Positions 12,150 to 34,511 of a DNA stretch of 38,055 bases are shown here, in pieces. This DNA is from a virus, in UHGV virus genome UHGV-0022456; one strand, 5' to 3'. The notes beneath the pieces are model-generated. The model saw only the letters and a program-made list of their open reading frames with translations, was not told the DNA's origin and did not search any database. Within the stretch, counting starts at the first letter, position 1. Each line of letters starts with the position of its first letter. A program made the translations under genes and the position numbers.

Positions 12150-12177
12150 GGTTGACATAATACAAGGAGGGAACACA

Positions 12178-15615: not shown

Positions 15616-16266
15616 TTAATATCCAATAGCCAGAAAAAAAACATCAGAAAGATTAGAGTCATGACTTGTGCCGGATGTCAGGCACGTCACAGCGTCAAAC
15701 CCAGTATTTGTTACGCTCTCACAAGACGTAACAATCTGTGCAAATGTCAACTTAGTGGCAAATACTCCCCAAACACCAGTCGGAAATGGTGTCGGATAGG
15801 TGACAGGGATTGTTGTCGGTATGCCAATTAATGTTGAGTTAGATAGCCTACGCCGAAAGACCTGGGTAATTAAACCATTTGGAAGTTTAGCTAACAGATT
15901 GTCAGTGCCTTTCCCTGTAAGCTGGAAATAACTCATATCAGGTATTTCAAGCGATTGAGTATTACCGACATCACGGCCAGATGCTGTCCCGAGATCTCCC
16001 AAACCAAGATTCTCGAGAGCCTTAGCGATTGCTGCCGGACCATCAGCTTTAATGTCTCCGAATGGGTCTGTTCTTTGTAGCTTATTTGAATACAGCCATT
16101 GAGATTTCAGGTCTGATAAATTTTGCAGATAACTGAAGTCATTTTTAGTTGGGGGGGTTGCCCCAACAAATTCCCAACCCTTTGCATAGTTAACATCACC
16201 GATTGGCGTCAATCCACCAGTGGCGGTAGAACCGAAAATCTTGCTGAAATCTGCTGGCAGAGCCAT
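15616..16266 (-). CDS. Tail fibre protein (short)
   Basis: 216 aa; Gly/Thr/Ser-rich; position between baseplate genes and tfa. Confidence 0.5.
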   Translation of the reverse strand: MALPADFSKIFGSTATGGLTPIGDVNYAKGWEFVGATPPTKNDFSYLQNLSDLKSQWLYSNKLQRTDPFGDIKADGPAAIAKALENLGLGDLGTASGRDVGNTQSLEIPDMSYFQLTGKGTDNLLAKLPNGLITQVFRRRLSNSTLIGIPTTIPVTYPTPFPTGVWGVFATKLTFAQIVTSCESVTNTGFDAVTCLTSGTSHDSNLSDVFFLAIGY

Positions 16267-33410: not shown

Positions 33411-33431
33411 AAAAAACCCGCCGGAGCGGGT
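33411..33431 (-). terminator. Rho-independent terminator after tRNA-like gene
   Basis: Minus strand ACCCGC-TCCG-GCGGG followed by TTTTTT. Confidence 0.6.
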
Positions 33432-33440
33432 CTTATGATT

Positions 33441-33515
33441 TGGCGGGAAGGCATGGACTCGAACCATGATAAAAGAGTTAACAGCTCTCCGTAATAACCT
33501 TTATACGACCTACCC
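33441..33515 (-). tRNA. tRNA-Asn (anticodon GTT) candidate, phage-encoded
   Basis: Hand-folded cloverleaf: acceptor GGGTAGG/CCTTCCC (one U-U mismatch), D-loop with GG, anticodon stem GAGAG/CTCTT, loop CTGTTAA, T-arm CATGG-TTCGAGT-CCATG, discriminator G, encoded CCA. Confidence 0.55.
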
Positions 33516-33545
33516 GTTGCTGGTTTAAGCATTGCCAGCATGCTT

Positions 33546-33626
33546 CTTAATATCCAGCCCCGTAATCCCTGCATACCCCTACACATGATTGCGGAAAATT
33601 GTTTTCAATTAATGCTGGATATTAAG
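33546..33626. repeat. Perfect 13-bp inverted repeat flanking a 55-bp spacer
   Basis: CTTAATATCCAGC (33546-33558) and GCTGGATATTAAG (33614-33626); noncoding stretch upstream of tRNA. Confidence 0.5.
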
Positions 33627-33735
33627 TGTTGTGTGCCGGTCTTTCCCGTCTGTCATTTACACCACAACGGGGTCAGCGTTGCTTTGAGGCTATCCAATGC
33701 TAGCAAGGTTAGTATTGCCAAATCGTGGAGCTATG

Positions 33736-34011
33736 TCAATCTATTGGTTTCCCCAGTGCGTGCATATCCCCGGATGATTTCGATAATATATCAGCCAGCC
33801 TTCCGAGCTGCCCAGCTATGTCAGATAGATTTTCATTTATCTGCTGTATTTCCTCTTTCAGTGTTGAGCCGCCACCGTAAGGAGTCATGCCAAGCTGCAT
33901 GGCTATAGCCTCAAGAAACTTCGGGGTGTCGTCGCTATCGGTAACACCAAGCCCGCGAGAAATCACGGACACCAATGAATGCAGGTCTTCATTTGTTGTT
34001 TTGTTTTTCAT
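33736..34011 (-). CDS. Hypothetical protein (91 aa)
   Basis: ORF downstream of Arc-like ORF; acidic, Gly-rich centre. Confidence 0.45.
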   Translation of the reverse strand: MKNKTTNEDLHSLVSVISRGLGVTDSDDTPKFLEAIAMQLGMTPYGGGSTLKEEIQQINENLSDIAGQLGRLADILSKSSGDMHALGKPID

Positions 34012-34153
34012 TTTTTCTTTCCATTCTGATGATGTAGTCTGTCACTATGATGTCAAGCATAGAAGGGGCAGACCTGTTATCTTCAGCTGCAAGCCTTCTA
34101 ATCTTGTCCAGCGTCGTTCTTCTGATTGTCATTGAAGCGAAGTTTGGATGCAT
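33989..34153 (-). CDS. Arc-like ribbon-helix-helix DNA-binding protein (54 aa), not in ORF track
   Basis: ATG at 34153 with GGTGA SD; MTIRRTTLDKIRRLAAEDNRSAPSMLDIIVTDYI parallels P22 Arc (LDLVRKVAEENGRSVNSEIYQRV). Confidence 0.45.
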   Translation of the reverse strand: MHPNFASMTIRRTTLDKIRRLAAEDNRSAPSMLDIIVTDYIIRMERKNEKQNNK

Positions 34154-34158
34154 TGCTG

Positions 34159-34356
34159 TCACCACTGCTTCAGCATGGCAATGGCAACCCTCAGGCGGAG
34201 TATCGCAAGCGGCTCAAACCTGAAAGTCCTGACGTGGTAATATCTGGCGCAAGAGTTTAGCTCATCCCTGGTGTTTAACTTAGGCTTTCTGTCAGCGGGA
34301 ATTTGCTTCTGAACCATTTCTGCAAATTCACAGATTAAATCTTTGTTGGCACCCAT
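34159..34356 (-). CDS. Hypothetical protein (65 aa)
   Basis: ORF just downstream of palindrome-rich region 34382-34464. Confidence 0.4.
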   Translation of the reverse strand: MGANKDLICEFAEMVQKQIPADRKPKLNTRDELNSCARYYHVRTFRFEPLAILRLRVAIAMLKQW

Positions 34357-34381
34357 TGTGGTAATGTCTCACTATTTGATT

Positions 34382-34464
34382 AAAAATAACGCCGATGTTG
34401 GCAGCACCGGCGAATGTTTAAAACGTTTTGGCATTCAATTCTTTTGGTGTTACTAGCACCAAAA
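34382..34464 (-). promoter_or_regulatory. Palindrome-rich control region (candidate operators and weak terminator)
   Basis: 10-bp palindrome AAAACGTTTT (34420-34429); inverted repeat TTTTGGTG-7nt-CACCAAAA (34442-34464); minus-strand hairpin CGCCG..CGGCG (34390-34412) plus TTATTTTT. Confidence 0.4.
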
Positions 34465-34480
34465 TAAAAGGAGTATGGTT

Positions 34481-34511
34481 ATTGTTATGTATGCCACTGG
34501 CAATGTCAACC
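34481..34511 (-). promoter_or_regulatory. Promoter-like GGTTGACAT copy at 3' end of lysis cassette
   Basis: Minus strand GGTTGACAT (plus 34503-34511); -35 TTGACA, 17-nt spacer, weak -10 AACAAT. Confidence 0.3.

Follow-up and report, generated by a model that had tools for sequence, protein, structure and literature searches.

The window analyzed here, UHGV virus genome UHGV-0022456, is a complete-looking metagenome phage contig of 38,055 bp (ENA ERZ27287279 k141_237837) that was present in 4 samples. On its minus strand, directly downstream of the lysis genes, it carries a discrete 764-bp cassette with three small genes, here called A, B, and C, behind a conserved leader. Our favored reading, to which we give an even chance, is that this region is an autoregulated, self-contained accessory operon (a "moron") in which B, a probable ribbon-helix-helix (RHH) regulator, would act at a conserved repeat in the leader, with A and C as payload. 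The phage is apparently an uncultured, enterobacterial or E. coli-type phage of ~38 kb without lysogeny genes, and its nearest cultured relative is Escherichia phage BUCT618 (OM735461, 38.3 kb), with ~90% identity across the aligned parts.

The three genes and the cassette boundaries

Along the minus strand, the gene order is lysis genes, leader, A, B, C, a structured noncoding stretch, tRNA-Asn, a terminator, and the portal gene. The cassette and its elements are as follows, with protein lengths in amino acids (aa).

34503-33740, minus strand: accessory cassette of 764 bp (own -10, leader, A, B, and C)
34481-34509, minus strand: P1, sigma70-type promoter-like TTGACA-17-AACAAT (promoter scan)
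34442-34464: 8-7-8 inverted repeat TTTTGGTG-CTAGTAA-CACCAAAA, about +8 to +30 from the predicted P1 start
34420-34429: 10-bp palindrome AAAACGTTTT
34412-34380, minus strand: terminator-like hairpin CGCCGGTG-CTGCCAA-CATCGGCG, then TTATTTTTAA (terminator scan and centroid fold)
34356-34159, minus strand: gene A, 65 aa
34153-33989, minus strand: gene B, 54 aa from the ATG at 34153 (58 aa from the GTG at 34165)
34011-33736, minus strand: gene C, 91 aa

The three genes overlap or abut one another, and the gene caller of the source contig left A and B uncalled. An earlier sequence-only reading had placed a 54-aa open reading frame (ORF) at 33989-34153, between a 65-aa and a 91-aa ORF and downstream of the lysis genes, and this arrangement was confirmed, the endolysin, holin-like, and spanin genes lying directly upstream. 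B and C had homologs in metagenome and Logan assemblies only. The 12 related loci (L002-L013) all have intact copies of A, B, and C, with gene order, overlaps, and placement between the lysis genes and the portal gene unchanged. Variable sites at codon positions 1/2/3 numbered 3/6/20 in A and 2/2/12 in B (seven distinct DNA versions, a count in which the domains of C were not separated). The ratio of nonsynonymous to synonymous substitution rates (dN/dS), calculated from six versions including the window, was 0.12 for A, 0.17 for B, 0.26 for the N-domain of C, and 0.13 for its helix-turn-helix (HTH) domain. By this codon-position bias and these ratios, all three are genuine coding sequences kept by purifying selection. 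Upstream of MHPNF, the residues of B differ among loci and run into the end of A, which makes the 54-aa form (start at 34153) the conservative call. Plus-strand ORFs of 122, 82, 58, and 97 aa were rejected, as the substitution pattern fits the frames of the minus strand, whose ORFs are intact in every relative.

The cassette is flanked by a direct repeat, GGTTGACAT at 34503-34511 and GATTGACAT at 33733-33741. Homology to BUCT618 ends at window position 34504, just inside GGTTGACAT, and picks up again at 33631. After the stop codon of gene C the window reads GATTGACAT-17 nt-AATACT and then ACAACG...CCGGCACACAACA, a sequence that aligns with the BUCT618 stretch directly after the o-spanin stop codon of that phage (GGTTGACAC-17 nt-GATACT...). 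Judged by this alignment, 34503-33740 is a cassette of insertion or replacement type with a copy of the promoter box at either end, and since BUCT618 does without it, the cassette is nonessential.

At the DNA level, the cassette region was unmatched in cultured phages and complete E. coli genomes, and the cassette was absent from 50,697 cultured phage records, complete E. coli genomes, IMG/VR, and the JGI metagenome collection. Scans of IMG/VR, JGI metagenomes, and GTDB genomes with A or C likewise gave no match. A tblastn search of A, B, C, and the remote B homolog P0071 against cultured phages returned only a weak match to gp59 of Pseudomonas phage MR14. The sequence-only reading had missed that the three ORFs form a discrete cassette missing from the closest isolate, along with the terminator-like hairpin in the leader and the origin of C as a deletion derivative of a 159-162-aa protein.

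Gene B as a probable ribbon-helix-helix protein

The B protein (33989-34153, minus strand) starts MHPNFASMTIRRTTLDKIRRLAAEDNRSAPSMLDIIVTDYI... and has a predicted layout of a strand around FASMTIRR, helix A (TTLDKIRRLAAEDN), an RS turn, and helix B (APSMLDIIVTDYI), with a lysine/glutamate-rich C-terminal tail. We compared a 13-sequence profile of the B family with single target sequences in hhalign; the Arc and CopG targets were checked against PDB, and the other panel sequences are approximate. The best match was CopG (score 27.5, P = 3e-5, 39 columns), which covered the whole beta-alpha-alpha unit at 18% identity. Arc (score 22.5, P = 5.5e-4, 25 columns) and Aca14 (score 22.3, P = 9e-4, 36 columns, hhalign probability 22%) aligned in register, the latter at 8% identity, a fold-level likeness only that does not make B a homolog beyond the fold. 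Among the approximate sequences, Mnt (15.3, 36 columns) and NikR (14.7, 20 columns) were also in register, and ParD and MetJ (~10) were at background, as were seven non-RHH controls (scores of 8-14). Two hundred shuffles each of Arc and CopG gave a mean of 9 ± 2 and a maximum of 18, with 0/200 reaching the observed scores.

Searches of PDB were less stable. With B alone, phmmer returned only pArc (E = 0.6); a profile of near-identical B homologs also returned only pArc (E = 0.021, over 20 residues), and the Arc match was lost once remote homologs were added. RHH proteins have an N-terminal beta-strand that pairs in the dimer into an intersubunit antiparallel ribbon, with two helices behind it; an AlphaFold monomer model of B showed no ribbon. 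Among 1.84 billion representatives, an exhaustive HMMER search identified four remote homologs (E = 3e-5 to 1e-3), and a profile search added two. All of them share an alternating hydrophobic/basic strand, TT, a helix, (N/R)RS, and a second helix. One (P0073) matches Pfam RHH_5 below threshold (E = 8.4e-4, 19.5 bits versus a curated cutoff of 26), and another (P0075) has a precomputed RHH_5 (PF07878) match.

On this indirect profile evidence, and with support from neither direct model matches nor the structure model, B very probably belongs to the RHH superfamily. It shares with the CopG/RHH_5-type repressors (1b01, 2cpg) its length, an alternating hydrophobic/basic N-terminal strand, helix A, an N/G-x-S turn, and helix B, but differs from CopG in its lysine/glutamate-rich tail, and no family model reaches threshold on it. 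In this comparison, B is nearer to CopG/RHH_5 than to Arc, in a small family that has no curated model. The sequence-only reading had called it an Arc-like RHH protein. The RHH assignment looks likely, given CopG, Arc, and Aca14 in register, homologs that match RHH_5, and two homologs in the Cro position, whereas membership of the Arc family is not supported, with no Pfam Arc or RHH match at E ≤ 1 and a best match that is CopG-like. The Pfam RHH_1 and Arc profile check proposed for the 54-aa ORF likewise gave no direct match, and the hhalign family profile did align with RHH proteins of solved structure.

The contexts of the remote homologs suit a small transcriptional regulator in all four cases inspected. 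On contigs of ~30-40 kb, P0071 and P0074 are divergent from an HTH_3/CI-type repressor adjoining a serine integrase and lie ahead of replication genes; by this gene order, they occupy the Cro position of temperate phages. P0072 is located between lysis genes and an early-type gene block containing RecT, and P0070 comes after a small acidic 86-aa protein in a two-gene unit.

Around the promoter of P0071 (L014 4880-5010) there are five (A/G)GTAAC(G) repeats, which resemble the loop AGTAAC of the repeat in the window (34453-34448). An operator common to B and its Cro-position homologs was considered and the likeness judged probably coincidental, because L016, with the same ribbon residues, has different repeats (GATAGCAA). 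Unrelated histidine kinases of Firmicute type (478 aa; P0056, P0059, and others) share the 90%-identity protein cluster of B (window 33992-34153); a fusion of B with a histidine kinase was rejected, and these members are a database clustering artifact.

Leader elements, genes C and A, and flanking features

The intergenic leader between the o-spanin gene and gene A is 149 nt long, and its last ~90 nt before the start codon of A are almost invariant across loci. The leader alignment covers the repeat in 11/12 loci (only its 3' part in L003) and the palindrome and terminator in 12/12. The -35 box of P1 lies within GGTTGACAT (34503-34511) and overlaps the o-spanin stop codon TGA. Its TTGACA and AACAAT are kept in all related loci, with variation in the 17-nt spacer. 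Transcription is predicted to start near 34474, giving a leader transcript of 118 nt.

The sequence-only reading had proposed three operator candidates, the palindrome, the 8-7-8 repeat, and the GGTTGACAT copy, all of which are present (34420-34429, 34442-34464, and 34503-34511, respectively), and of these the 8-7-8 repeat alone held up. Allowing for up to 2 mismatches, the window still has a single copy of it (0.03 expected; 3/100 shuffles contain one), and it is kept in all 11 of the 12 loci that cover it with 1-nt variants only, namely, a T-to-C change in one arm (L006/L007) and an A-to-G change in the opposite arm (L004, L008-L011). The repeat is therefore a credible conserved regulatory element, a candidate for either a B operator or a 5' RNA hairpin. 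The palindrome AAAACGTTTT is no commoner than chance (at up to 1 mismatch, 74/100 shuffles have one or more matches) and is kept in only 2/9 distinct related sequences (L012, L013), most relatives having AAAACGTTTGA, AAAACC-TTGA, or AAAACA-TTGA in its place; it is probably nonfunctional as a palindrome.

The third candidate belongs to a genome-wide set. G[G/A]TTGACAT occurs 8 times in the window versus 0.9 expected (0/100 shuffles), at 729, 6125, 9443, 12150, 23353, and 35969 on the plus strand and at 33741 and 34511 on the minus strand. At 729, 6125, 9443, and 35969, it is followed after 16-17 nt by TAATCT, TAGATT, TAAGGT, or TAAGAT (TAnnnT) and then by the ribosome-binding site and start codon of a plus-strand, early-type gene. 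These arrangements suggest that the motif is the -35 box in a family of sigma70-type promoters found phage-wide and not a module-specific operator. At 12150 and 23353, a Shine-Dalgarno sequence and ATG lie within 11-16 nt of the motif, which cannot be the -35 box for that ORF.

The centroid fold of the leader consists of two hairpins, one formed by the repeat and the other the terminator-like hairpin, which ends ~24 nt before the start codon of A. The 5-bp GC core and T-tract of the latter are invariant in all loci, and its loop-proximal positions vary. As a whole, the leader fold is not unusually stable relative to shuffles (z = -0.4), and the leader matched no Rfam family. As a promoter between this hairpin and gene A, TTTAAT (34384-34379) was rejected, for it has no acceptable -35 box or TG extension. 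BUCT618 has no comparable terminator after its spanin genes, and read-through from the lysis genes into the tRNA/portal region may be altered in cassette-bearing phages.

In related loci, gene C encodes a protein of 159-162 aa with a conserved N-domain of ~80 aa, a variable linker, and a C-terminal HTH_17 domain of the excisionase/AlpA type (Pfam E = 0.002-0.02 in full-length relatives; precomputed PF12728 in three). In the window, an in-frame deletion of ~204 nt has removed the linker and the HTH_17 domain and kept the last six codons, so that this domain is absent from the 91-aa protein. The junction lies at window 33760/33755 versus L002 2740/2949, as placed by BLAST to L002, L003, and L005 and by protein alignment. 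The exact 91-aa form was found on 2 contigs, and 3 others have a variant of that length, which shows that the short form circulates and did not arise by misassembly. Among the full-length forms, the HTH domain has at least two deeply diverged alleles (synonymous divergence, dS, of ~1.4, versus 0.1-0.27 for A, B, and the N-domain), both under purifying selection, a pattern that indicates modular exchange. In L005 (1153-1640), gene C is frameshifted into ORFs of 50 and 108 aa; together with the deletion in the window, this suggests that C is often damaged or dispensable.

The N-domain of C is homologous to the stand-alone 79-aa protein gp59 of Pseudomonas phage MR14, and an N-domain-only form therefore has a natural precedent. 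In MR14, gp58, an HTH_17 "regulatory protein," is paired with gp59 (shared motif LE[AG]IAMxLGMTxYGxxST..EEI), as the two domains are joined in full-length C. The MR14 genes are separate, however, with the HTH gene first (the opposite order), and they stand at the head of a replication operon, upstream of primase; the similarity between gp59 and C is weak (tblastn E = 0.01). C gave no Ant/KilA-type, toxin, or other family match in Pfam, PHROGs, NCBIfam, or PADLOC, and its PDB matches were few, weak, and unrelated to toxins.

Gene A encodes a basic protein that is almost invariant from residue 7 to residue 65. It had no match in Pfam, PHROGs, NCBIfam, PADLOC, PDB, the cultured-phage collection, or IMG/VR, and its homologs were detected only within the cassette. 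A single-sequence AlphaFold2 model has three helices, at a predicted local distance difference test (pLDDT) score of 59 that is too low for a fold search.

The flanking features are listed below.

35870-35244, minus strand: GH108 endolysin
35196-34951, minus strand: DUF2644 holin-like protein
34917-34654, minus strand: Rz-like i-spanin
34868-34506, minus strand: o-spanin, embedded in the i-spanin region
33711-33739, minus strand: P2, resident promoter TTGACA-17-AATACT (promoter scan), homologous to TTGACA-17-GATACT of BUCT618
33441-33515, minus strand: tRNA-Asn (GTT) (ARAGORN and Rfam), the downstream neighbor of the cassette and outside it
33413-33434, minus strand: terminator after tRNA-Asn (terminator scan)
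33359-31971, minus strand: portal gene

P2 overlaps the stop codon of gene C and probably drives the downstream leader and tRNA. The tRNA at the homologous locus of BUCT618 (L001 30390-30463) is annotated as Ile and that of the window is Asn (GTT), with homologous flanks, and the tRNA, too, has the look of an exchangeable cassette. Just upstream of the tRNA, the 117-nt stretch 33516-33632 (minus strand) has a minimum free energy of -37.7 kcal/mol (z = -4.8, 0/200 shuffles) and no Rfam family match. Over ~77-105 nt, it is 92-94% identical to sequences in the otherwise unrelated Salmonella phages Segz_1 and SEzh_1 and Escherichia phages Bas77-79 and ASO78B; in Bas77, the counterpart falls where a hypothetical protein of 33 aa is annotated, ahead of the major tail gene. 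This stretch may be a mobile RNA element or a tRNA-processing leader.

The sequence-only reading had also described the window as having no integrase or CI-type repressor, and none was found among 10 candidate ORFs in a scan that was not exhaustive. A BUCT618 coding sequence labeled "integrase" (L001 12033-12809) sits between a tail-fiber assembly gene and a baseplate gene, and the window protein at this position (15616-16266) has a Gp53-like_C tail-fiber domain; the label is probably a misannotation of a tail-fiber protein.

Favored model, alternatives, and significance

In the favored model, P1, a host-type promoter of the phage's own GGTTGACAT family, would start a transcript whose 118-nt, almost invariant leader carries the 5' inverted repeat or hairpin and the terminator-like hairpin. 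Transcripts passing the latter would express A, B, and C, which are closely packed and probably translationally coupled. A dimer or tetramer of B would bind the 8-7-8 repeat just downstream of the P1 start and keep the expression of its own operon low, that is, by negative autoregulation. A and C would be the payload, with C in relatives joining its N-domain to a swappable HTH_17 domain and only the N-domain left in the window. The leader and B hardly change among loci that differ in their C alleles, the HTH-less variant of the window included, and from this we infer that B, and not C, is the partner of the leader elements. Binding of B to the repeat, early timing, and any function of the payload are predicted parts of this model.

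The closest functional analogue would be the operon of Aca14, an RHH autoregulator of a small phage accessory operon (bioRxiv 10.64898/2026.07.27.740549). Like B, Aca14 is encoded inside such an operon with a conserved inverted repeat in the promoter/leader, and autorepression that limits a strong promoter is the same concept. Its repeat overlaps the -10 box, whereas that of the window lies 14-36 nt downstream of the predicted -10. In addition, B is the middle gene of its cassette and not the last, and no known anti-defense gene was found there in Pfam, PHROGs, NCBIfam, or PADLOC. The operator of CopG is a 13-bp element that overlaps the -35 box, in contrast to the 8-7-8 candidate in the window, which is downstream of the -10.

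Several points weigh against the autoregulated operon. B itself matched no RHH model in Pfam (E ≤ 1), PHROGs (E ≤ 0.01), or NCBIfam (E ≤ 10), and PADLOC gave nothing meaningful for it. The arms of the repeat are 15 bp apart from center to center and downstream of the -10, which is atypical relative to the operators of Arc and Aca14, and the repeat variants (a U-G-compatible change and one mismatch) do not separate a DNA site from an RNA hairpin. Finally, the terminator-like hairpin between P1 and A may mean that P1 transcripts mostly stop early and that control is at the RNA level.

This last point leads to a reading that we regard as possible, though of clearly lower probability, in which the leader acts as RNA. 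P1 together with the terminator-like hairpin would yield a small RNA of ~95 nt or act as a transcription attenuator, the 8-7-8 repeat would be a 5' stem-loop (an mRNA stabilizer or a protein-binding hairpin) and not a DNA operator, and B, C, or a phage or host factor would control read-through into A-B-C. A promoter followed by a 5' hairpin, a single-stranded stretch, a GC hairpin, and a U-tract is how a small RNA or attenuator is classically laid out, the 90 nt before the ATG are more conserved than the synonymous sites of the flanking genes, and there is no good alternative promoter between the hairpin and gene A. Stem position 6, whether G or A, can still pair with U, and the A-to-G variant of the repeat leaves a U-G pair; however, compensatory double changes are absent, two stem positions near the loop vary uncompensated, the overall fold is no more stable than shuffles, and no Rfam family matched. 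Aca regulators have been reported to bind hairpins in 5' untranslated regions (bioRxiv 10.64898/2026.07.27.740549), but RHH proteins are DNA binders. A further reading, which we consider unlikely, is an early counter-defense or interphage-competition operon of a new type in which A would be a new inhibitor, B an Aca-like RHH regulator of a family outside current models acting at a dual DNA/RNA element (repeat/hairpin plus attenuator), and C a modular effector whose conserved N-domain would be brought to different DNA sequences by the swappable HTH_17 domain, the naturally occurring HTH-less variants being a functional state.

Other roles for B seem less probable still. That it is a Cro-like general regulator of the temporal program, shutting off early promoters elsewhere in the genome, is suggested by the Cro position of P0071 and P0074 opposite CI-like repressors and by P0072 at the head of an early-type (RecT) block. 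We find this quite doubtful, as BUCT618, ~90% identical over aligned parts, lacks the whole cassette, the genome holds no second copy of the inverted repeat even with 2 mismatches, and the other GGTTGACAT promoters share no extra motif with P1. The sequence-only reading had likened the region to an immI switch that could control an unrecognized effector among the adjacent small ORFs. In the P22 form of this reading, an Arc-type repressor would control an antirepressor-like effector. B is, like P22 Arc, a small phage RHH protein, with helix A and the turn motif RxxLDxhRxxAxExxRS in register (pArc E = 0.021; hhalign P = 5.5e-4), and it lies in an operon with small uncharacterized proteins. Yet the alignment with Arc spans 25 columns only, no Pfam Arc match was found, and CopG matched better. 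Of the immI genes arc, ant, mnt, and sar, the last three have no counterpart in the cassette, which also lacks a second RHH gene of the Mnt type, a pair of divergent promoters, and a TAGA-type operator; its genes are codirectional, A and C are without matches, and C in relatives is an N-domain with HTH_17. P22 is temperate, whereas no lysogeny genes were found in the ORFs scanned in the window, and an antirepressor would have no obvious target in this phage because those ORFs include no integrase or CI-type repressor. Gene content largely refutes the immI reading, to which we assign very little probability. The same small weight goes to a type II toxin-antitoxin or abortive-infection pair, A-B or B-C, with B as antitoxin. 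The genes are small and overlapping, one encodes an RHH protein, a repeat lies near the promoter, and RHH antitoxins commonly autoregulate. Against such a pair, neither A nor C matched a toxin family in Pfam, NCBIfam, PADLOC, or PDB, C is of a DNA-binding type in relatives, A is by eye unlike known upstream toxins such as HicA, and 12/12 loci are in phage structural and lysis contexts.

As it stands, the accessory-operon reading is a routine refinement of annotation that holds no surprise. If it is true, B would represent a small RHH regulator family outside the curated libraries, with no match to Pfam, PHROGs, or NCBIfam models and absent from ~50,000 cultured phage genomes and IMG/VR. Its members would act in the Cro position in temperate phages and, in the window, would govern an add-on cassette of a phage in which no lysogeny genes were found. 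The payload genes A and C would be candidates for host-takeover or anti-defense functions. The cassette itself would be a compact case for the insertion of genes at promoter boxes (the duplicated GGTTGACAT), for insulation by a leader terminator, and for the swap or loss of a DNA-binding domain.

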